Positions 9,942 through 34,331 of a stretch of DNA of 34,331 bases are shown piece after piece; the stretch's first letter is position 1, and each line of letters starts with the position of its first letter. The stretch spans positions 1 to 34,331 of the IMG/VR virus record IMGVR_UViG_3300020045_001687, one strand, 5' to 3'. Made by a program: the position numbers and the translations under genes. The notes under the pieces are model-generated. The model was not told the origin of the DNA, ran no database searches, and saw only the letters and a program-made list of their open reading frames with translations. This DNA comes from a virus (taxonomy: Duplodnaviria; Caudoviricetes).

Positions 9942-10923
9942 GCAATATCAAAACGTGGCAGGAAAGGATGGATTCACATGTTATCGGCCCATACCCGGGA
10001 GAGCGCGATTGCATGTGGGCTGAAATAAAAGATCTCCGCGCAGCCCTTGAGAAAGCAGAGCAGGAGCGCGACACACTGCAGGCCATAATTCTGAAAGCAG
10101 CAGGAGAACGGTTGGAGCTATTGGAAGAGCTTGACAGGATAAACACTGCAAGTAGAAAGCATGTTTCTGAGCGCCATGAACTGCAAGCCAAGCTGTCCGA
10201 GCGCGACACTATGATTTCTCAGGACCGCATGATCATTGACGCGGCTGCCGCAGATGTTGATGCGTTGGAAGCCAAGCTCGCGGCGCTGGAGGTGGCGAAA
10301 TGAGTGAGTTTTTCAGCCCGAAAGACTGGCGCTGCTCGCATGGATTTCTGCGCGGCGAGCAATGCGAAACCTGCGCAAAGATCAAGAGCCTTGAGGCTGA
10401 AATCGAGCGCCTGACAGCAGAGCGCGATGCTGCGCTGGTGGATGCGTGGAGAGAGTTTGCCCGCGCAATCGAAGCCAAGTGCAAGTGTGAGCACTGGCAG
10501 AGCTGTGTGGAATGTCATCCTACTGCTCACGCAGCACTGGCGCGGCTTGCGAAGCGCTCGAAAGAATGTGGTGAGCAAGCGGCGAAGCTCGCAGCACTGG
10601 AAGCGCAGGAGCCTATTGGCTGGATGGATTCGGAAGGGACAACTATCTGGACAACCCGCGATATCAGCAACTTTTCATCCAGTGCTCGCACAGAATATCC
10701 TATCCCGCTCTACGCAGCCGCTGGTGCAGCACCTGTGCCAGAAAGCTATCAGCTTGTGCCAGTGGAGCCGACGCCGGAGATGTGCAATCAAGGCGCACAG
10801 GCGATTGTGTCGTGGGAAAACGGCGCAACTTGGCCTGATTCTTGGGGAGTCTTGAAAGCCAATCGGCACCGCAAAGACTGCCGCAAAGCGTACGTTGCAA
10901 TGCTGGCCGCAGCAAAGGGGCCA
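9791..10923. mobile_element. GC-rich foreign accessory segment
   Basis: Abrupt change in composition and codon usage relative to the flanks. Three overlapping ORFs resembling temperate-phage ea/ead-type genes. Confidence 0.7.
9938..10303 (+). CDS. Coiled-coil hypothetical protein
   Basis: ATGA overlaps at both ends and GGAG RBS. Confidence 0.75.
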   Translation: MSNIKTWQERMDSHVIGPYPGERDCMWAEIKDLRAALEKAEQERDTLQAIILKAAGERLELLEELDRINTASRKHVSERHELQAKLSERDTMISQDRMIIDAAAADVDALEAKLAALEVAK

Positions 10924-10926
10924 TAA
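10300..10926 (+). CDS. Mosaic Eaa/Ead-like accessory protein
   Basis: QEPIGW, PIPLY, LVPVEPTPEM and YVAMLAAA motifs. GGAGG RBS. Confidence 0.75.
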   Translation: MSEFFSPKDWRCSHGFLRGEQCETCAKIKSLEAEIERLTAERDAALVDAWREFARAIEAKCKCEHWQSCVECHPTAHAALARLAKRSKECGEQAAKLAALEAQEPIGWMDSEGTTIWTTRDISNFSSSARTEYPIPLYAAAGAAPVPESYQLVPVEPTPEMCNQGAQAIVSWENGATWPDSWGVLKANRHRKDCRKAYVAMLAAAKGP

Positions 10927-11180
10927 TGAGACCTCTTACAAAAACTCTAGGAATGTTTGGAAGTGAAACAGACGAGGAATTCAATGAGAGCGCTCCCCTG
11001 TCTTATGAGATTTCTCGTTGTCGTGGCTCTTACAAACCTGTTCCATTTGGAAGTGAGTTATATAAAGAATGTATAGCATGTCTAAGGAGAAAAGTGACTG
11101 GAAATCCTCTGAGACAATCTTATATTATTTCTGGTGATACAAAAGGTGCTTGTCAATATTTTATTAAGGAATCAAAATGA
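10926..11180 (+). CDS. Small Cys-containing hypothetical protein
   Basis: TAATG overlap gives ATG 10926. Return to AT-rich codons. Confidence 0.65.
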   Translation: MRPLTKTLGMFGSETDEEFNESAPLSYEISRCRGSYKPVPFGSELYKECIACLRRKVTGNPLRQSYIISGDTKGACQYFIKESK

Positions 11181-11359
11181 CTCAATTTGTTGATGAAAAA
11201 GATTGGGATGGTGTTGATTTTAAAAAGATTTATGACGTTCTTGAAGATGGTACTTATCTTAACGAAAGAATGTACATGTGGGATTTCATTAATCAAGTGG
11301 AACTTATTCATAAAAAACAGGTCAAACAAGTACCTAGTTTATTGAAAGGGGATAAGTGA
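11177..11359 (+). CDS. Hypothetical protein (60 aa)
   Basis: AAGGA RBS, overlapping start and stop codons. Confidence 0.7.
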   Translation: MTQFVDEKDWDGVDFKKIYDVLEDGTYLNERMYMWDFINQVELIHKKQVKQVPSLLKGDK

Positions 11360-13881
11360 GTACAAAATGTATCGAGAAGCTTCCACATAGAACAGATAAA
11401 TGTAACTCTAGCTCAGGATTACAAGTCTTTGCTAAGGAAGGAGGCGGGTATGATGGATATTGCTTTGCATGTGGAGAGTATATCCCGAATCCATACGGTG
11501 ACAAGCCTGAAGGATATAAACCCAAAGTATCTATTAAGTCTGATGAAGAAATCCAAGCAGAACTAGACGAAGTAGAAGAATACCAAACTGTTGACCTACC
11601 CAAACGAAAGCTTAGGAAAGAGTCATTAGAATACTTTGGTATTAAGATTGGATTGTCAGAAACTGATGGAACTACTCCACATAGTCATTATTATCCTTAT
11701 TACAAGGGGGGTAAACTTATCGGATATAAGGTTAGACTTATTGAAGATAAGCGAATGTGGGCTATTGGTTCTACGAAGGAAGCTGATTTCTTTGGGTGGA
11801 ATCAAGCTGTATTAGCTGGTGGTAAGAAGCTCTTTATCACCGAAGGGGAATGTTTTACACCTGATACTCAAGTCCTTACTCCTAACGGATGGGTACGCTT
11901 AGATGAATGGGATGGTCAATATGTGATGACAGGATCAGGTGAGTATGAACTCCCTTCATGGCAGGTCAAAAAACACTATGAAGGGAATCTTGTAGAATAT
12001 TCCAGCGGTTCATATAAATCTTCCATGACACCAGAGCATAACATGCTACGTGTTAAAGATGGAAAATGGATTAAGGTTAAAGCTGGTGATTCTAAAAAGA
12101 AATATTTACCTGTACCTCGTACTGTTGATTACAATTCATATGCAAATACTCTTGCTACACGTGCTCAAGTGATGCTTAGTGCAGACTTTACATTCCGTAA
12201 AGAAGGTGATCTGTATGGTGCTTTTAAGAAAACACGCAAGGTAGAAAGAGCCAAGGAAATTCTTGATGAACTTGGTGTACGGTATGTGATAAATAAAGTA
12301 AAAGGAGGATATTACTCTATATTTATCCATCGTGAACATGGTTTAGATGTTTCTAAACTATTTTCTTATAGTAGAGATTTGAGAAGTGCACGTACTGTTA
12401 TTAATGAGATTGTTCATTGGGATGGTAACAGTGTACCTGATCGTGATCAAATAGAATATGCAACTAAAGAGCTTCACAACGCTGAGTTTGTACAAACGTG
12501 TGCTCACCTATGCGGATATGTGTCTACAATTATTCGTCGATCTAATAAATATGGTAATTGGTATAAAGTATCTATCCTATTCGGAAAGCAAACTTCTAGC
12601 ACACAGAAAGGTTTTAAAGAAATTCCATATAAAGGGGAAGTGTATTGCCTGACTGTACCTAGTGGAACTCTGCTTGTTAAGTATAAAGAAAGTATTTCAG
12701 TATCTGGGAATTGTGATGCTGTAGCCTTGTTTCAAATCTTCAAGGATAAGAACAAGGCTACTCAATATGCTGATATGAATCCAGCTATTGTATCTGTCTC
12801 TAATGGAGCCGGTGGAGCTGCTAAGCAAATCTCTAGAATGCTTCCTGAAATTAGAAAACAGTTTAAGGAAGTTATTCTAGTATTTGATAATGATGAGCCG
12901 GGTAAAAAAGCTGTAGAAGATGTATTAAAGATTCTTCCAGATGCATTAGTGGCTTCTATTCCGTCTAAGGATGCTAACCAAGCATTGATTGATGGACGTA
13001 GTATTGCTACGTATAATGCTTGTCAGTTTAATGCTCAGAAGCCTAAGAATACTCGTCTAATTTATGCCTCTTCCTTACATGAAGCTGCTAAAGAACGCCC
13101 TAAGATGGGATTTAGTTGGCCTTGGTCACATTTAACCAAAGCAACACGTGGTCTTAGATTTGGGGAGACAATCTACTTAGGTGCTCCTCAGAAAATGGGT
13201 AAGTCGGATGTAGTCAATACACTTGCTGCTCATTTTATTAAAGAACATGGTTGGAAAGTGTTCCTTATTAAGCCTGAGGAGGAGAACAAAAGAACTTATA
13301 AAATGGTTGCTGGTAAGCTTGTGGGTAAGTTTTTCCACGATCCTAATAAAGAGTTTGATGAGGATTCGTTTGAAGAAGCTGGTGCTATCATACAAGATAA
13401 CCTCATTCTATTGAATTTGTACCAAGCAGTTGATTGGGAGACTACAAAAACAGATATACGAGCTGCTGTAGCAGAGGGAGTAAAAGCTGTATTCCTTGAC
13501 CCATTAACTAATTATTCAAATGGAATGTCTGCTGCGGATGCTAATGTGCTTCTGCAAAAAATAGCACAAGAAGCCGCTGCTCTAGCTCTCGATCTTAACA
13601 TTGTAATGTTCTTAACTTGTCACGTTAGAAACCCTGAATCAGGTATACCTCATGAACTAGGGGGTCACGTTCTAAGCAATCAAATGGCTGGGAGTAGGGC
13701 TATGGCTCGCTCGTGTCACCTTCTTCTCGGGCTTGAGGGTAATCGTGATCCTAATCTACCCGCTGAAGAGCGGAATATGAGGCAGATTGTAATTTTGGAA
13801 GACAGAAACTTCGGCGAGAACGGTCGTTTCAAACTGTACTGGGACAATAATACAGGTCTTTTCCAAGAAATCAACCATTAG
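11356..13881 (+). CDS. T7 gp4-like primase/helicase containing an intein
   Basis: N-terminal Zn-finger (YCFAC), TOPRIM ITEGE|CDA and FDNDEPG, helicase Walker A GAPQKMGKS, FLDPL and EDRNFG. Confidence 0.93.
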   Translation: MSTKCIEKLPHRTDKCNSSSGLQVFAKEGGGYDGYCFACGEYIPNPYGDKPEGYKPKVSIKSDEEIQAELDEVEEYQTVDLPKRKLRKESLEYFGIKIGLSETDGTTPHSHYYPYYKGGKLIGYKVRLIEDKRMWAIGSTKEADFFGWNQAVLAGGKKLFITEGECFTPDTQVLTPNGWVRLDEWDGQYVMTGSGEYELPSWQVKKHYEGNLVEYSSGSYKSSMTPEHNMLRVKDGKWIKVKAGDSKKKYLPVPRTVDYNSYANTLATRAQVMLSADFTFRKEGDLYGAFKKTRKVERAKEILDELGVRYVINKVKGGYYSIFIHREHGLDVSKLFSYSRDLRSARTVINEIVHWDGNSVPDRDQIEYATKELHNAEFVQTCAHLCGYVSTIIRRSNKYGNWYKVSILFGKQTSSTQKGFKEIPYKGEVYCLTVPSGTLLVKYKESISVSGNCDAVALFQIFKDKNKATQYADMNPAIVSVSNGAGGAAKQISRMLPEIRKQFKEVILVFDNDEPGKKAVEDVLKILPDALVASIPSKDANQALIDGRSIATYNACQFNAQKPKNTRLIYASSLHEAAKERPKMGFSWPWSHLTKATRGLRFGETIYLGAPQKMGKSDVVNTLAAHFIKEHGWKVFLIKPEEENKRTYKMVAGKLVGKFFHDPNKEFDEDSFEEAGAIIQDNLILLNLYQAVDWETTKTDIRAAVAEGVKAVFLDPLTNYSNGMSAADANVLLQKIAQEAAALALDLNIVMFLTCHVRNPESGIPHELGGHVLSNQMAGSRAMARSCHLLLGLEGNRDPNLPAEERNMRQIVILEDRNFGENGRFKLYWDNNTGLFQEINH
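11851..12711 (+). mobile_element. Intein (287 aa) with LAGLIDADG-like central domain
   Basis: Starts CFTPDTQVLTPNGW. Block B MTPEHNM, block F VYCLTVPSG, ends SGN followed by extein Cys. Removal restores EGECDA. Confidence 0.93.
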
Positions 13882-13913
13882 TGTCGAATATTGCCTTCGT
13901 GGAGAGTATAGTA

Positions 13914-14423
13914 ATGTTTAAGGATATTATGATTACTCAAGACAGACTGAAAGAACTTGTTAACTATGATGAAAACACAGGGATTTTTATATGGAAAGCT
14001 AAAGCAGCTAATCGTGTAAAAATTGGATCAGTGATTGGTTCTAAACACCATACCGGATATTTAACCGTATTTCTTGACAGAAAAAGCTATAAACTTCACA
14101 AGATAGCTCTTCTATATACAGATGGTGTTTATCCTAACGAAATAGTAGACCACATAAACGGGATCAGAGATGACAACAGAAGGGTTAACTTACGGCTTGC
14201 AACGAATAGTGAAAATACACGTAACTCAAAAATCAGGTCTGACAATCGTTCTGGTATTAAGGGCGTCAACTACAGAAACAAATCAGGTGGTCAATGGGTT
14301 TGTCGAATACACACTAATGAAGGAAGAAAGTACCTTGGGTGTTACAAAACACAAGAGGAAGCTGAAAAAGTCATGAAAGAAGCCCGTATAAAGTACCACG
14401 GTGATTATGCAAGACATCAGTAA
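13914..14423 (+). CDS. HNH homing endonuclease with AP2 DNA-binding domain
   Basis: VDHINGIRDDNRRVNLR..T..EN..N, then NRSGIKGV...YLG...EEA. GGAG RBS. Confidence 0.92.
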   Translation: MFKDIMITQDRLKELVNYDENTGIFIWKAKAANRVKIGSVIGSKHHTGYLTVFLDRKSYKLHKIALLYTDGVYPNEIVDHINGIRDDNRRVNLRLATNSENTRNSKIRSDNRSGIKGVNYRNKSGGQWVCRIHTNEGRKYLGCYKTQEEAEKVMKEARIKYHGDYARHQ

Positions 14424-19218: not shown

Positions 19219-19501
19219 TGCTGCATATGAGAGGCACGCTATGGAACAAGGGCTTGTAACCACTCCTGTATTTCCTGAGAATAAGAAATGGGGGCAACCA
19301 GCCCCTGTTAGGAATACTCATCCTATTCTCTGGAATAAAGTACAAATTGATTTCATTGAGCGTAATCAAATGGGTGTAGAGAAATATGGAACACCTCTTC
19401 AGCCTTTCAATGGACGTGATGCATTGAAAGATGCTTATGAAGAAGCTCTAGACCTAGTTGTTTACCTTCGTCAAGCTATTTATGAACGGGATGGTAAGTA
19501 A
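19187..19501 (+). CDS. Putative all-alpha NTP pyrophosphohydrolase-like protein
   Basis: G.EKYGTPL...DAYEEALDLVVYL (EExxD). Start codon uncertain (TTG 19187 or ATG 19241). Confidence 0.6.
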   Translation: MQLLNQPSSLDAAYERHAMEQGLVTTPVFPENKKWGQPAPVRNTHPILWNKVQIDFIERNQMGVEKYGTPLQPFNGRDALKDAYEEALDLVVYLRQAIYERDGK

Positions 19502-20610
19502 TGAAAACCGCTAATATCAGCGTAGAGTGTATTGACTACTGTGGCTCTGATCTTTCCGTCGTCAATGCAGCAAGGGTTAGTTTCAATAAAGAGAGTGAAC
19601 GAGTAGACATTCCTAATGTGTTTAGTATTTCTAATAAGTGTCTTTCTGAAAAAGACATTAAACTTATTAACTATCTAGCTAAGCACAATCATAAATCTCC
19701 TTTCAACCATGCTTTTCTTTCCTTTCGTGTAAAGGCTCCGTTGTTCGTAGCTAGGCAGCTTGGGAAGCACGAGTACCTTCCTTGGAACGAAGTAAGTCGA
19801 AGATATGTAGACGAAGAAGTTGAGCTTTACTTTCCGGATTTTTGGAGGAAGAAAGCTGAAAATGTAAAACAAGGGTCTTCTAATTTAGAGATCAAACCAA
19901 ATACTTATGGTAATGGTATTTGTGTAAAATGTGGAAATGATGTCCCACGTAAATCAGCAGGACCACGAGGTAAATGGTGTAGTGATGCTTGTAGAGCTTC
20001 ATACAGAAAAGAGCACGATCCAGATCACCGTCTTCACACAGCGAAATTTAATGCACAAAAGAGAGCCCTCTCTTTTAATCTTAACAGAGGCGATATAGAA
20101 TGGGTGACACACTGCCCAATCCTTGGAATTGAATTAGAATATAATTCATACGAAAGCTCAAATGATAATTCTCCATCAATTGATCGTATCAATCCTTTAA
20201 TTGGTTACGAGAAAGATAATGTTTGGGTAATAAGCAACAAAGCTAATAGGATGAAGAATGATGCAAGTAAAGAAGATTTAGTTAAATTTGCACGATCTAT
20301 ATTGCTAACATTTAATGGTCAAATTGTACCAGAGAATGGTGATGTCTATAGCTCTTGTGAACATATGGTTAAGCACTATGAATGGCTTCTTAAAGAAGGA
20401 GTAGCTCCCGAGCAAGCTCGTATGGTGCTACCCCAGAACATGATGACCTCTTGGATTTGGAGTGGTACATTGTTTGCTTTCGTTAAGATGCTTAAACTTC
20501 GTCTTGATCCTCACACTCAACAAGAGACACAGGAAGTAGCTAAGCAAATTAGTAAATACGTAGAGATGTTTTTCCCGGCTTCTTATCAAGCACTAATGGA
20601 GAATAAATGA
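19501..20610 (+). CDS. thyX: FAD-dependent thymidylate synthase with in-frame Zn-ribbon/His-Me nuclease-like insertion
   Basis: GSDLSVVNAARVSF, HKSPF.H, ARQLGKH...NEVSRRY and KQGS, then a ~140-aa insert, then GVAPEQARMVLPQ and LRL..H.Q.E. Confidence 0.92.
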   Translation: MKTANISVECIDYCGSDLSVVNAARVSFNKESERVDIPNVFSISNKCLSEKDIKLINYLAKHNHKSPFNHAFLSFRVKAPLFVARQLGKHEYLPWNEVSRRYVDEEVELYFPDFWRKKAENVKQGSSNLEIKPNTYGNGICVKCGNDVPRKSAGPRGKWCSDACRASYRKEHDPDHRLHTAKFNAQKRALSFNLNRGDIEWVTHCPILGIELEYNSYESSNDNSPSIDRINPLIGYEKDNVWVISNKANRMKNDASKEDLVKFARSILLTFNGQIVPENGDVYSSCEHMVKHYEWLLKEGVAPEQARMVLPQNMMTSWIWSGTLFAFVKMLKLRLDPHTQQETQEVAKQISKYVEMFFPASYQALMENK

Positions 20611-20996
20611 AACTAATTGTAGCAGGAAGTAGATCAGGATTTACACAAGACCAAGTTTCTGGTGTTCTTGATGAACTAGTTGATCCTTTAGAAACTGAAG
20701 AAGTGGTTTCAGGAAGTGCTATTGGAGTTGATAAATATGGAGAACTTTGGGCTTATAGTAATAATATTGATGTTAAGCGGTTTCCTGCTGATTGGAAGGC
20801 GCTAGGTAAACGAGCAGGATTTAAACGTAATGCTGACATGGGTAAATATGCTGATGGACTTATTGCCTTCTGGGATGGCAAGTCTAAAGGAACACAGCAT
20901 ATGATTAACGTAATGTCAGACCTTAATAAAGAAACTGTCATTGTTACTCCTTATGTTCCTGAGGAAGATGATGATGAGGAAGAACAAGATGATTAA
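20607..20996 (+). CDS. SLOG/YspA-like (DUF2493-type) protein
   Basis: MKLIVAGSR, VSG.A.GVD, AG..RN..M and AFWDGKSKGT.HMI motifs. Confidence 0.82.
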   Translation: MKLIVAGSRSGFTQDQVSGVLDELVDPLETEEVVSGSAIGVDKYGELWAYSNNIDVKRFPADWKALGKRAGFKRNADMGKYADGLIAFWDGKSKGTQHMINVMSDLNKETVIVTPYVPEEDDDEEEQDD

Positions 20997-21779: not shown

Positions 21780-22107
21780 CAAATGGGGTATGGTGTATTT
21801 GCTGAATGATTATCAAGCGGCTGCAATGGGTGTGAGGCTTGACTCAGCAGATGAGCGTTACGCTCTAGATGGTTTGGTTGGTGAGGTGGGAGAGCTATTC
21901 TCTCTCCTTGCTAAGGCTCGTAGGGATGGTGAGAAACCTGATCATAGCTTGCTGCTTAAGAAAGAGCTAGGAGATGTATTTTGGTTTTTAGCAGCTATTG
22001 CAACAGATAACGGATGGACACTTTCAGACATTGCTAATAGTAATATTGTGAAACTTTATAAACGAAAAGAAAACAACACTTTGAGTGGATCGGGTGACTA
22101 TAGGTGA
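21772..22107 (+). CDS. mazG: MazG-like nucleotide pyrophosphohydrolase
   Basis: GLVGEVGE...KELGDVFW...N..KL..R...L.GSGD.R. Confidence 0.88.
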   Translation: MDNKWGMVYLLNDYQAAAMGVRLDSADERYALDGLVGEVGELFSLLAKARRDGEKPDHSLLLKKELGDVFWFLAAIATDNGWTLSDIANSNIVKLYKRKENNTLSGSGDYR

Positions 22108-22511
22108 GTTGTATAATTCCAAATACAGTTAGCGTAGATAAAGACGGATATCCTAGGCTAAAACACAATAAAAGGATTTGGAGGATGAATAGGTTAATGT
22201 GGACTTTGGTTTATGGGCCCATACCGGAAGGTTTAGTAGTGGGGCATTCCTGTAACAACAAAGGATGTATTAATACTAATCACATGTACCTCTGTACACC
22301 TGAAGCTAATTCCTCAGATGCTGCGAGAGACGGTCTGTATAAATCAGGGTTTGATCATTATAAATCTAAAGTATCAAAAGAAGACCAGGTAGCCATGTGG
22401 GAGATGTATCACACTGATATTATTTCCCAGGAAAAGATTGCAGAGTTGTTTAATATTTCACAATCTACAGTATCAGATCATATTAGGAAAGTTGAAAAGG
22501 ACTATCGGTAA
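22104..22511 (+). CDS. HNH homing endonuclease with C-terminal HTH
   Basis: GPIPEGLVVGHSCNNKGCIN.NH.....EANSSD and SQEKIAELFNISQSTVS. GTG start. Confidence 0.85.
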   Translation: MSCIIPNTVSVDKDGYPRLKHNKRIWRMNRLMWTLVYGPIPEGLVVGHSCNNKGCINTNHMYLCTPEANSSDAARDGLYKSGFDHYKSKVSKEDQVAMWEMYHTDIISQEKIAELFNISQSTVSDHIRKVEKDYR

Positions 22512-27159: not shown

Positions 27160-27378
27160 CTACACGACTAGCGGGTCTGCAGCGGGCTGGTCAGGCGCAG
27201 CCAGGTCTTGCTTGACTGAATCCACCGGGGCTTTGACTTCCTTGGCCCAGCCTTCTTCTGTCGAGACGCGGATCAGGTCCTTGTCGTCTGTCTCGATCAC
27301 TTCGCCGGCCGCATGATCTTTGATGTGGACGTTCTGATACGCCCAGCTGAAAGCCTTTTTGACTTTGAGAGTTACCAT
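27160..27378 (-). CDS. Small post-capsid protein (72 aa)
   Basis: GGAG RBS. Immediately downstream of the capsid terminator. 5' part repeated at 34268-34331. Confidence 0.75.
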   Translation of the reverse strand: MVTLKVKKAFSWAYQNVHIKDHAAGEVIETDDKDLIRVSTEEGWAKEVKAPVDSVKQDLAAPDQPAADPLVV

Positions 27379-27388
27379 TTTTTGCTCC

Positions 27389-27421
27389 AAAAAAAGCCCC
27401 TGAAATTTCTCTCAGGGGCTT
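27389..27421 (-). terminator. Rho-independent terminator after capsid allele A
   Basis: aagcccctga/tcaggggctt stem plus T7 on the minus strand. Confidence 0.88.
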
Positions 27422-27443
27422 GAGGGTTGATGTCGGCCAGGTG

Positions 27444-28694
27444 TTAGGACGCGGCGATTTTCAGCAGCTTGATGGCCTGGGTGTTGCGCAGCTTGCCACC
27501 GACGCGCTTGCGCACGTAGAACTTGACGAAGCCCGGCGAGGTGATTTCGTCACGGGTCATACGCATGCCGACGCGGTCGGCAATCAGGTAACCTTCCTTG
27601 AAGTCACCGAAGGCCAGCGGGAAGGCATTGGCGGCCACTGCCGGCATGTCTTCAGCTTCGGCAATGCCGTAACCCAGGAATGTGGCCGGCTGGCTTACCG
27701 ACAGCGACGGCTGCCACAGGTACTGATTGGTGGTGTCCTTGTACTTCCGCATGACGGCCAGCACCAGCTTGTTGGTGAGCCAGTTGGCATTGCGCCGATA
27801 CCGTGCGCGCACACCGTAAATCAGGTCATAAAACACGTCGGCGCTGGTCGGCATGGCGGCAGCTTGGCCGGAGGCGATGTACTGCAGCGTGCCAAAGGCG
27901 CGGGAGGCGTCGGCGGTCGACACCGGGGTGGGGCCAGCCAAGATGCCGGTGGGCTTTTTGGTGCCGTTGCCAGCGATAAAGGCGGCACCTTCTCCGCCGG
28001 CGATGGCTTCCACCGCGCTGTCAATCAGCCAACCTTCGACATCAAAGAAGAGGTCGTCCAACGACTCTTCCGTGGCCTGGGGCTTGGCGCTGGCCATGCC
28101 GAAGGTGGGCGCGATTTCAGCCATGTCAGGCGTGTTGGACTGGTTGCGGGTATCGCCCTCGCCAAGCCACTCAAAACCGGCGCCATTGATGTCGAACAGC
28201 TCTTTGTAATCGGAGCTGCCAACCAGGCGCACGGTAGCCAGCTGGCGGATGGGAGAAATGTCGACGGACAGCCGGGCGATGGTGCGCTCGATCACTTCGG
28301 GAAGTGCATAACCACCGGCCGAACCCGTGCTGGTGATGACCTGGGTCGACCGGGTTTCACGTGCGTCGGCGCGTTGCTTGGCTTCCAGGGCTTTGGCGGC
28401 CTGGCTGGTGCGCTGCTGAACCTCGCCGTTGCCCGGATTCCGCACCCAGTCGAAGAAGGCATTTTTGTAGGCCAGAGCTTCAGCGGATTCGCGCGACTCA
28501 CGGTCACCAGTGCCGGCCAGTACGCCCGGGCGGGCCAGCTTGGCTTCGAGCTTTTCGAGCTTGGCCTTGGCTTCAGTCATGCCGTCGATGTGCTCATCCA
28601 TGCGGGCCAGCTTGGCGTCCAGCTCGGCAGTGCCTTTGCCGGCCTTGACGGCTTCGATGCGGGCATCGTTGGTTTTCTTGTATTCATCGAACGC
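27444..28694 (-). pseudogene. 5'-truncated HK97-family major capsid protein (allele A)
   Basis: Open frame homologous to 32811-34202 but missing about the first 47 codons. About 38 substitutions in 385 aa by manual count. Confidence 0.85.
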
Positions 28695-29153
28695 GTCGAG
28701 ATCCCGTCACCGCCCAAGCACCTGGGCGTCGAGGCCCGGAAAGAATGGAAGCGCATTGCGCCGCTGCTGGAAGAGTTGGGCCTGATCAGCGGCCTGGATC
28801 GTGCCGCGCTGGCGCTTTACTGTCAGGCCGTTGGCCGCTTGTCCGAGCTGGAAATGGCATTCAACGGCAAGGTGCAGGGCCACGTTGACACTGGCATGAG
28901 CTACCCGGATGCCGTGTTTGCCGCCAGCCGCGTGGTCACCCCCAGCGGCTACGAGCAGCAAAGCGTGATCGTCAATCTGATCGCCGGCCACCGCCTGCAG
29001 GTGCACCGCCACCTGGCGCACTTTGGCCTGAGCCCATCAGCTCGCGCCCGCGTCCAGCCATCGAATTACGTGCAGCCCAGCCTGCCAGGCATTGAGCCGG
29101 CCCCGAATCAAAATGCTGCCAGCGGCTTCGCCAAGTTTTCCCTGGTCCAGTGA
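28695..29153 (+). pseudogene. terS: 5'-truncated terminase small subunit (P27-like)
   Basis: P.PPKHL...ARKEWKRIAPLL...LDRAALALYC...FGLSPSARAR directly upstream of terL. No start codon or RBS because the junction cuts it. Confidence 0.85.
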
Positions 29154-32810: not shown

Positions 32811-34202
32811 ATGAAAAAGTCCCTGACCATGCTGGCCGTTATGGCCCTGCACTTTGGCGCATTTGCCACCAAGTCTCAAGAGTTCGCTTACGAAAAGCGT
32901 GAAGACCCCACCATCAAATCCGTGGCCGATGCCCTGGACAAGATTGCCACCGCGTTCGATGAATACAAGAAAACCAACGATGCCCGCATCGAAGCCGTCA
33001 AGGCCGGCAAAGGCACTGCCGAGCTGGACGCCAAGCTGGCCCGCATGGATGAGCACATCGACGGCATGACTGAAGCCAAGTCAAAGCTCGAAAAGCTCGA
33101 AGCCAAGCTGGCCCGCCCGGGCGTGCTGGCCGGCACTGGTGACCGTGAGTCGCGCGAATCCGCTGAAGCTCTGGCCTACAAAAATGCCTTCTTCGACTGG
33201 GTGCGGAATCCTGGCGACGGTGAACGGCAGCAGCGTGCCAGCCAGGCTGCCAAGGCGCTGGAAGCCAAGCAAAAGGCCGATGCGCGCGAAACCCGGTCCA
33301 CTGCAGTGGTCACCAGCACCGGCGCGGCTGGCGGCTTTGCCCTGCCCGAAGTGATCGAGCGTGCCATTGCCCGCTTGTCGGTCGACATTTCCCCCATCCG
33401 CCAGTTGGCCACCGTGCGCACCGTCGGCAGCACCGACTACAAAGAGCTGTTTGACATCAATGGCGCCGGCTTTGAGTGGCTGGGTGAAACCGACACCCGC
33501 AACCAGACCAACACGCCTGACCTGGCCGAAGTGGCGCCTACCTTCGGAATGGCCAGCGCCAAGCCGCAGGCCTCTGAAGAGTCGCTGGATGACCTGTTTT
33601 TTGACGTCGAAGGCTGGCTGATCGACAGCGCCTCCGAAGCCATTGCGGCAGGCGAGGGCGCCGCCTTCATGTCCGGCAACGGCACCAAGAAGCCCACCGG
33701 CATCCTGGCTGGTCCCACCCCTGTGACCACGGTCGATGCCTCCCGCGCCTTTGGCACGCTGCAGTACATCGCCTCTGGCCAAGCAGCGGCCATGCCGACC
33801 AGCGCCGACATCTTTCTGGATCTGGTGTACGGTATTCGCGCCCGCTATCGCCGCAATGCCAACTGGCTCATGAACAAACTGGTTCTGTCTACCGTGCGTA
33901 AATACAAAGACACCACCGGCCAGTACCTGTGGCAGCCGTCGCTGTCTGCCAGCCAGCCCTCGACCTTTTTGGGCTACGGCATTGCCGAGGCAGAAGACAT
34001 GCCCGTGGTGGCGGCTAACGCCTTCCCGGTGGCCTTCGGCGACTTCAAAGAAGGCTACCTGATTGCCGACCGCGTTGGCATGCGCATGACCCGTGACGAA
34101 ATCACCAGCCCGGGCTATGTCAAGTTCTACGTCCGCAAGCGCACCGGTGGCAAGCTGCGCAACACCCAGGCCATCAAGCTGCTGAAAATCGCCGCGTCTT
34201 AA
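32811..34202 (+). CDS. HK97-family major capsid protein (allele B)
   Basis: Coiled-coil delta domain, GGFALP, GNGTKKPTG, YLWQP and FGDF..GY.I.DR. Confidence 0.95.
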   Translation: MKKSLTMLAVMALHFGAFATKSQEFAYEKREDPTIKSVADALDKIATAFDEYKKTNDARIEAVKAGKGTAELDAKLARMDEHIDGMTEAKSKLEKLEAKLARPGVLAGTGDRESRESAEALAYKNAFFDWVRNPGDGERQQRASQAAKALEAKQKADARETRSTAVVTSTGAAGGFALPEVIERAIARLSVDISPIRQLATVRTVGSTDYKELFDINGAGFEWLGETDTRNQTNTPDLAEVAPTFGMASAKPQASEESLDDLFFDVEGWLIDSASEAIAAGEGAAFMSGNGTKKPTGILAGPTPVTTVDASRAFGTLQYIASGQAAAMPTSADIFLDLVYGIRARYRRNANWLMNKLVLSTVRKYKDTTGQYLWQPSLSASQPSTFLGYGIAEAEDMPVVAANAFPVAFGDFKEGYLIADRVGMRMTRDEITSPGYVKFYVRKRTGGKLRNTQAIKLLKIAAS

Positions 34203-34224
34203 CGCCTGGTCGACATCAACCCTC

Positions 34225-34257
34225 AAGCCCCTGAGAGAAATTTCAGGGGCTTTTTTT
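34225..34257 (+). terminator. Rho-independent terminator after capsid allele B
   Basis: aagcccctga/tcaggggc stem plus T7. Confidence 0.88.
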
Positions 34258-34267
34258 GGAGCAAAAA

Positions 34268-34331
34268 ATGGTAACTCTCAAAGTCAAAAAGGCTTTCAGC
34301 TGGGCGTATCAGAACGTCCACATCAAAGATC
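34268..34331 (+). CDS. Small post-capsid protein (partial, runs off the window)
   Basis: Identical to the 5' end of 27160-27378. Confidence 0.75.
   Translation, partial: MVTLKVKKAFSWAYQNVHIKD

Follow-up and report, generated by a model that had tools for sequence, protein, structure and literature searches.

Results

A phage ThyX with an in-frame zinc finger and nuclease domain

We analyzed a 34,331-nucleotide (nt) stretch of viral DNA (Duplodnaviria; Caudoviricetes; IMG/VR record IMGVR_UViG_3300020045_001687, positions 1 to 34,331; hereafter the window) and find from its sequence that its thymidylate synthase gene, thyX, encodes a phage ThyX with a zinc finger and a PacI-like nuclease domain inserted in frame. 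Both domains lie within a cassette of ≈174 codons, and we lean toward the view that this cassette is likely retained unspliced in the enzyme and likely spreads by cutting thyX alleles that lack it.

The thyX open reading frame (ORF; protein P0001) is open across its entire length of 369 amino acids (aa), just as an initial annotation made from the letters of the sequence had described, and it scores 119.5 bits against TIGR02170, for which the cut-off is 87.9. Its record, 70% complete, has no other thyX match. The N-terminal ThyX part shares 82% nt identity with the insert-less allele of a sister phage, L001, up to position 19874, and Ser99 aligns with the catalytic Ser88 of the T. maritima enzyme. 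As the initial annotation had said, the insert sits in a variable ThyX segment: the most variable stretch of the protein holds the cassette. The parts of the gene are listed in Table 1.

Boundaries of the cassette

The limits of the cassette emerge from comparison with two sister phages, L001 and L006, which have the same gene neighbors at 86–92% nt identity and lack the insert. In blastn alignments, the match to L001 ends at 19874 and resumes at 20398, and that to L006 ends at 19829 and resumes at 20402. Because nothing in L001 matches between 19874 and 20398, the mobile unit consists of ≈174 codons (19876–20397) that stand in place of 35 host codons, and this block includes a linker as well as a replacement for the long ThyX helix preceding GVAPEQAR. 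The span from SRRY to PEQAR measures 199–201 aa in all 19 carriers of the window subfamily versus 53–88 aa in 116 insert-less alleles. Across ten pairs of a carrier and its nearest empty allele, identity falls 1–6 codons past SRRY and recovers at GVxPEQ. Inteins characteristically enter cleanly between neighboring codons of a conserved motif; here, 174 codons replace 35, and they do so in the most variable segment. A proposed deletion of 141 codons, meant to restore an ordinary ThyX, is arithmetically sound (369 − 141 = 228) but misplaces the boundary, and natural alleles never match it.

The initial annotation had also drawn attention to copies of the hexamer AATGGT at 19912, 20314, and 20335; these positions are correct, and a fourth copy at 19973 had been missed. 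The window holds 20 copies, with 20.8 expected by chance, and at the corresponding positions L041 and L043, the two further carriers whose DNA is available in full, have different bases. Because of this chance-level count and the other bases in L041 and L043, we read the hexamers as mere Asn-Gly codons, not target-site repeats, and we rejected them both as a target-site duplication and as hop codons.

A family of ThyX fusions

The fusion is not unique to the window assembly, and both close (16) and more distant (60) carriers exist. Of 70 candidates from a search with the insert, 33 were hits: 17 ThyX fusions (the window's included) and 16 nucleases without ThyX. Sixteen further ThyX proteins contain an insert 64–87% identical to that of the window with the same junctions. 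At least 77 fusions stand among the best 120 of 7749 profile hits, the lower-ranking of these 120 being ordinary ThyX, and 60 of the carriers listed there hold a more distant insert. A library clustered at 50% added 12 carriers with both anchor motifs and three more seen by eye, which brings the total to ≈94 carriers, two contig-derived proteins counted in. The insert comes directly after KQGS, within an open frame, in all 79 carriers of the joint analysis; in 15 more, it was seen at the same site. DNA is available in full for two other carriers (L041 and L043/L044) and in part for one. A literature search, in which subscription journals were mostly missing and supplements stayed unopened, returned no description of this element in thyX.

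Two other phage ThyX proteins, P0190 and P0207, carry classical HNH-bearing inteins at the active-site motif, not in the center of the protein.

The zinc finger and the PacI-like nuclease

Matches of the insert to PHROG 3322 ("endonuclease," 1e-26) and PHROG 1035 ("endonuclease VII," 1e-15), together with four cysteines that are invariant in the finger (17 of 17), bear out the proposal in the initial annotation of an in-frame zinc finger plus nuclease. A structural model of the insert built from a 38-row alignment (predicted local distance difference test (pLDDT) score of 87.6) finds its best fold match in PacI (3m7k; Z 7.2, root mean square deviation 3.0, 83 residues aligned), and Foldseek likewise puts PacI first (3ldy; E 9e-3, probability 0.98), followed by many HNH enzymes. 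The nuclease-fold homology for which structure prediction had been suggested as a check is thus present in the model. The structural alignments with PacI have 15–20% identity, and a sequence search of the Protein Data Bank with the insert returned no relevant match, PacI included.

By analogy with PacI, the putative active-site residues are Asp228, Arg229, Tyr236, Asn240, and Asn249. Among the 79 carriers, Asp228 is conserved in 75, Arg or Lys at position 229 in all, and Tyr236, Asn240, and Asn249 each in all. An Asp-Arg pair stands at the His position of the nuclease motif, followed by the invariant loop Tyr236. The His-Me label given by the initial annotation holds for the fold, whereas the type is probably PacI/Tyr, without a catalytic His.

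The finger is present in 54 of the 79 carriers and differs by subfamily; it has weak fold matches to YacG and to FCS/MYND fingers and a Pfam match to DUF2116 at E 0.07. Carriers exchange or lose this N-terminal module next to the nuclease core. The zinc finger is likely a DNA-binding module that is swapped or absent in other subfamilies.

Phages commonly encode free-standing relatives of the nuclease, some of which have a tandem pair of domains, in keeping with the resemblance to a free-standing phage nuclease family that had been noted from the sequence. Bacterial and archaeal genomes yielded a single free-standing relative, and none of 59 candidate proteins of 647–2000 aa contained the nuclease, which is weak evidence. 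A tree of nuclease cores places the 79 carriers' cores and 48 free-standing cores on opposite sides of a branch (support 75), and the carriers' nuclease could go back to one old invasion of thyX.

Several individual members of the family deserve mention. One subfamily (P0066, P0079, P0080, and P0094, also P0141, P0146, P0151, and P0176) has Asn at Asp228 and Leu at Lys252, and its nuclease is possibly dead or retuned, yet retained in frame. At L021:2665-3594, a free-standing two-domain PacI-like relative overlaps the start of an insert-less thyX, and in L055 a member of the nuclease family lies ≈2.3 kb upstream of thyX; such free-standing genes are possible precursors of the fusion. At L137:1501-2920, thyX is followed by an ORF for an EndoVII-type nuclease, a small gene, and then a second copy of the thyX 3′ end; this locus has the look of a free-standing homing element that supplied a substitute thyX 3′ end. 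The nuclease domain (19885–20340) also matches the PHROG 1400 and 4592 families, annotated "Srd anti-sigma factor" (5e-8) and "decoy of host sigma70" (7e-5), hinting that these families may be PacI-like His-Me proteins.

Signs of splicing, introns, or ribosomal bypass

The initial annotation had claimed that intein hallmarks, a stop codon, and an intron are all absent, and our Hint, Rfam, and junction scans were likewise negative across an open frame. A Pfam scan of 19885–20397 at E up to 1 found no intein or Hint domain; the same scan recovered Intein_splicing in the ThyX proteins P0190 (1e-17) and P0207 (1e-16) and, weakly, in the window's primase (1e-3). No Asn/Gln-Cys/Ser/Thr junction is shared among carriers, the best position reaching 10 of 89. 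The terminal Asn of FNGQ, invariant in the first 17 carriers, was considered as a splice or cleavage site and rejected: in the wider family, Asn272 occurs in just 19 of 79 carriers, and the residue after it is Gly (Gly273 in 77 of 79). An Rfam covariance search of 19300–20800 gave three matches at E up to 5, none of them an intron and all far below the gathering score.

At the DNA level, the three carriers with full DNA have saturated synonymous sites in the finger and nuclease (proportion of synonymous differences, pS, 0.77–0.97; of nonsynonymous differences, pN, 0.11–0.27), and they share no run of at least 9 nt. The RNA of the insert folds like shuffled sequence (z −0.69). Bypass of the T4 gene 60 type involves an in-frame stop after the take-off codon, a matched landing codon, and a hairpin. 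As for such features, the insert has no in-frame stop, and AATGGT is at chance level and not conserved. The five other frames across the insert contain 7–29 stops each, with a longest open stretch of 56 codons, and being closed they led us to reject a hidden out-of-frame ORF of the kind known from the ShiLan domain (see Discussion). No internal promoter or terminator was found on the plus strand. The finished ThyX probably retains the insert as an additional domain instead of losing it to splicing.

Elsewhere in the window, a canonical-looking intein (11851–12714, plus strand) lies inside the primase-helicase gene (11356–13881); it starts with CFTPDTQV, ends with SGN before a Cys, and has weak matches to Intein_splicing, LAGLIDADG_3, and Hint_2. 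With this intein and the thyX cassette, the same phage would host one splicing and one non-splicing parasite.

Integrity of ThyX and a model of the dimer

The ThyX motifs are maintained in the carriers, with RQxxKH and NExSxRY in 79 of 79 and the Arg334 pattern in 75 of 79. The ThyX signature, with its catalytic Ser, Arg, and Tyr, is present; its RHR part reads KHx, as it does in insert-less phage alleles. In the three carriers with full DNA, pN of the ThyX flanks is 0.19–0.34 against saturated pS. A full-length model keeps the ThyX fold (template modeling score to target ≈0.75), with the linkers poorly placed.

A two-copy model scored 0.62 versus 0.00 for the best of three controls, a mark that 20 of 30 solved pairs and one of 23 single chains reached, although this pass may stem from the predictor having learned the ThyX oligomers already solved. 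Contacts agree to at least 96% between runs, with pLDDT of at least 74, and the lowest-error contacts join insert residues 248–272 of the two copies beside the ThyX–ThyX contacts. The model predicts that the nuclease domains pair across the ThyX two-fold axis via their C-terminal helix.

Movement of the cassette between thyX lineages

To follow the cassette across lineages, we built thyX trees (quick and FastTree) from the flanks alone, without the insert. In the 134-row quick tree, which omits the partial P0006 and six insert-less loci lacking anchor motifs, 18 carriers need 17 changes, and a carrier clade is rejected (approximately unbiased test, p-AU 5e-6) on a 42-row subset of the carriers and their nearest empty alleles. 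The 367-row tree leaves out rows without anchors, short partials, and eight long or odd rows (including P0147 and two intein-bearing ThyX); here, 88 carriers need 54 changes versus a shuffled mean of 79, and 18 of these changes are forced by starred branches. For 49 of the 88 carriers, the nearest flank belongs to an empty allele.

Individual comparisons follow the same lines. The window flanks are 97% identical to those of the empty L001 and 68% to those of P0002, whose nuclease core is 87% identical to the window's; P0059 and P0078 display the reverse pattern, with flanks 92% and cassettes 41% identical. Comparing alleles with and without the insert, as the initial annotation had recommended, thus reveals a patchy, laterally moved element whose sisters L001 and L006 are empty. 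These trees and identities indicate that the cassette has clearly moved between thyX lineages, and the coexistence of occupied and empty alleles with lateral spread is a trait of homing endonucleases.

Is the spread driven by the nuclease?

A possible trace of nuclease action lies in the conserved flank just past SRRY. Pro-Glu-Phe (P-E-F) at positions 107–109 is present in 138 of 164 insert-less alleles versus none of the 19 window-subfamily carriers, in which it was lost by two routes, to EPEV or, in otherwise host-like tracts, to EVEF. On ten independent pairs, loss of P-E-F and presence of the cassette go the same way in 7.5 and the opposite way in none (median p 0.008). As a family-wide target signature, P-E-F loss was rejected, being true of the window subfamily only. 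We also set aside the flank differences of other subfamilies from the insert-less consensus and drew nothing from them: the insert-less set was seeded with the window subfamily, which makes the comparison unfair.

Patchiness alone is no proof of nuclease-driven homing, since the center of thyX is swapped without any nuclease. The segment from KQG to GVxPEQAR is exchanged wholesale between close insert-less alleles (for example, L008/L011, L085/L133, and L001/L006). The support for homing comes instead from conservation of the active site over saturated time, from module swapping that resembles the behavior of homing endonucleases, and from the flank signature. Set against this are several observations. 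Among insert-less alleles with flanks at least 95% identical, centers are unrelated in 64 of 85 pairs, and in 6 of 12 insert-less pairs with <15% synonymous difference. L001 and L006, the sisters without the insert, have V-E-F already, and a P-E-F target does not simply account for this; P-E-F is also kept in 48 of 60 carriers outside the window subfamily. Flank and cassette identity correlate among carriers (Spearman 0.54). The match to PacI is modest, its Z of 7.2 falling within the range reached by unrelated models, and Asp-to-Asn and Lys-to-Leu changes occur in 4 of 79 carriers. None of 1051 matching records from cultured phages covers 80% of the fusion. Weighing both sides, we regard nuclease-driven homing of the cassette as moderately probable from its sequence record.

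Proposed mechanism and alternatives

In the mechanism that we propose, the whole ORF would be translated as a single chain in which ThyX folds thanks to the cassette's own long helix. The insertion point would lie at the two-fold axis of the ThyX pair and so allow two nuclease domains to pair, as PacI-type nucleases need. In a mixed infection, the fusion would cut the conserved flank of a cassette-less thyX, in the window subfamily possibly at the P-E-F codons just past SRRY. Recombination repair between the SRRY/KQG and GVxPEQAR blocks would then copy the cassette together with an altered, immune flank. Splicing would be avoided by occupying a segment whose change thyX already tolerates, whereas ThyX inteins enter the active-site motif, where splicing is needed. 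The background swapping of the center would also explain how an element can persist here unspliced: the segment sits between two conserved recombination blocks and tolerates nearly any sequence.

The insert might instead be a passenger or domesticated domain, equally unspliced, that was inserted once long ago, was moved by ordinary recombination of the thyX center, and is kept for a benefit other than homing, such as DNA binding, cutting of host or competitor DNA to feed synthesis of deoxythymidine monophosphate (dTMP), or stabilization of the ThyX pair. The exchange of centers between insert-less alleles at low synonymous distance, the core tree with which a single origin of the carriers' nuclease fits, the large share of the modeled dimer interface taken by the nuclease domain, and the V-E-F sister phages without a cassette all agree with such a history. 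A beneficial domain should become fixed in clades, however, and carriers are a small, scattered minority (77 in the best 120 of 7749 hits); in addition, conserved flank codons outside the swappable center change along with the cassette, and the shuffling of N-terminal modules recalls selfish nucleases. We consider this explanation unlikely, although it deserves serious attention. Far less probable is removal or bypass of the insert by an unrecognized process that would yield a short ThyX, whether unusual splicing or cleavage of the protein, an intron that escaped notice, or hopping by the ribosome. Rfam sometimes misses group I introns, and KQGS is followed by Ser in 75 of 89 carriers, but Ser is also the commonest residue at that place in insert-less alleles (45%). 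There is neither a Hint domain nor space for one, the finger and nuclease filling the insert, and carriers share no C-terminal Asn/Gln-nucleophile, no conservation at the DNA level, no stable fold, and no conserved AATGGT repeats; every one of them is open end to end, which an intron or a hop would not require.

It is also conceivable that the insertion kills or cripples ThyX, so that the phage draws its dTMP from the host and the two parts of ThyX do no more than carry the nuclease. Phage thyX may be dispensable in many hosts, and a 140-residue insert at the oligomer axis could hinder the tetramer. The motifs kept in all 79 carriers, the constrained flanks (pN against saturated pS), and a model that retains both the ThyX fold and the ThyX–ThyX contacts speak against this, and we find it scarcely credible. 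That the fusion is an assembly chimera or a chance event confined to the window contig can be practically dismissed: the right end of the contig does look mis-joined, but 16 independent proteins with the same junctions and three independent contigs in DNA refute this reading.

Other features of the window

The first 25 kb of the window form a podovirus-like replication region with a primase-helicase, a family A polymerase, an exonuclease, and a class II ribonucleotide reductase. Two free-standing HNH genes lie in the window, at 13881–14423 (HNH-AP2, after the primase-helicase) and 22104–22511 (HNH-HTH, before the ribonucleotide reductase). In L001, the phosphoesterase gene has a ≈640-nt interruption relative to the window. 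An island of small ORFs at ≈10200–10930 with 55% GC in a 39% GC region is probably a recent acquisition. Segments 27315–28695 and 32951–34331 form a 1381-nt inverted repeat, 88% complementary, that yields two capsid genes; it lies within a 58–63% GC block with an HK97-type terminase, portal, and protease, and the first 25 kb have ≈39% GC. The contig is probably chimeric or mis-joined beyond ≈25–27 kb.

Table 1. Parts of the fused thyX gene, with positions in the window
Feature	Position	Strand	Evidence
thyX ORF with in-frame nuclease cassette, 369 aa (P0001)	19501..20610	+	Pfam Thy1 in two stretches, TIGR02170
N-terminal ThyX part, residues 1-125, with RQxxKH...NExSxRY and KQG	19501..19875	+	Alignments to 1kq4/3g4a
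Codons D104-Y110, left edge of converted tract, candidate nuclease target	19810..19830	+	P-E-F comparison
Mobile cassette, 174 codons, residues 126-299	19876..20397	+	blastn breakpoints versus L001/L006
5′ linker, residues 126-140, ...NTYGxG	19876..19920	+	Alignment; low pLDDT in full-length model
Treble-clef-type zinc finger (C141, C144, C160, C164) plus helix	19921..20028	+	Alignment, weak fold matches
PacI-like His-Me (beta-beta-alpha) nuclease domain, residues 177-270	20029..20310	+	Model, fold matches
3′ linker (FNGQxVPE) and the cassette's own ThyX long helix, residues 271-299	20311..20397	+	Alignments, model
C-terminal ThyX part from GVAPEQAR, residues 300-369, including R334	20398..20610	+	92% nt identity to L001

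Discussion

Homing endonucleases are placed in introns, in inteins, between genes, or at sites where they split a gene (reviews PMC3943268 and PMC2988022). Our comparison with known systems also took in PMC8351571 and 10.1101/2025.01.02.630785. Among the publications compared, the closest case is the ShiLan domain, an insertion in actinobacteriophage DNA methylases (Arsenault, Gosselin, and Gogarten 2025, PMC11855218). Like the thyX cassette, it has no stop in the host frame and no detected intein or intron, is patchy and taken as homing, is predicted to loop out of the host protein, pairs a zinc finger with a His-Me nuclease, and rests on computational evidence. In ShiLan, however, the HNH has a start and stop of its own in a different frame, what the host frame encodes is not recognizable as a protein, and the methylase host is non-essential, whereas in thyX the nuclease is itself the in-frame product and probably of PacI/Tyr type, the host is an oligomeric metabolic enzyme, and host codons are replaced.

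A solitary LAGLIDADG domain in frame has been described from this family of methylases (Gosselin et al. 2023, PMC9957025); it is similar in using the host frame, in having no splicing element, and in its own predicted fold. It differs in comprising nine sequences from one clan, for which that account gives no evidence of transfer; the thyX cassette has ≈94 carriers, a rejected carrier clade, and another nuclease fold and host. Free-standing or intronless homing of the T4 type, exemplified by mobE in Aeh1 nrdA and mobA in T4 gene 60 (Edgell et al. 2010, PMC2988022), resembles what we propose in lacking an intron or intein, in a cut site away from the insertion site, in co-conversion of flanks, and in targeting nucleotide metabolism, but those nucleases either occupy intergenic ORFs of their own or divide the host gene so that it makes two polypeptides, and the thyX fusion is one ORF.

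PacI belongs to His-Me group 20, in which the catalytic His is absent and a loop Tyr takes its role (Jablonska et al. 2017, PMC5714182). The thyX nuclease is akin to this group in its best fold match, in the apparent absence of a catalytic His, and in an invariant Tyr in the loop after Asp-Arg that would correspond to the PacI residue; PacI itself is a bacterial restriction enzyme without ThyX. Inteins are known in thymidylate synthases (10.1101/2025.01.02.630785), and the two HNH-bearing ThyX inteins described above likewise place an in-frame nuclease within a phage thyX. They have Hint domains, Cys...His-Asn ends, and a position at the active-site motif, unlike the cassette, which has none of these and sits in the variable center. 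By the features tested, the cassette appears to work like a homing endonuclease with co-conversion, yet it is not an intein, an intron, or an element of the ShiLan type.

We tentatively suggest, without being convinced of it, that the family represents a third lifestyle for homing endonucleases, in which an active nuclease would be permanently a domain of a working enzyme, dimerizing on the enzyme's two-fold axis, making good the harm of its insertion with a replacement helix, and retargeting by exchange of its DNA-binding module. Pressure from such a nuclease may explain the hypervariable middle of phage thyX. In annotation, such fusions carry the plain label "thymidylate synthase ThyX," and the elements are thereby overlooked. 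The unspliced examples published so far come from computation; they sit in a methylase that the phage can do without, and each is either out of frame or immobile. In thyX, ≈94 natural fusions share the reading frame of a single enzyme, near-twins of the occupied alleles are empty, the cassette is delimited, and there is a candidate target region. Whether a homing nuclease can persist, unspliced, as one domain of a functioning enzyme can be tested directly in this family, which also opens the way to the first biochemistry of a large, uncharacterized family of PacI-like phage nucleases.

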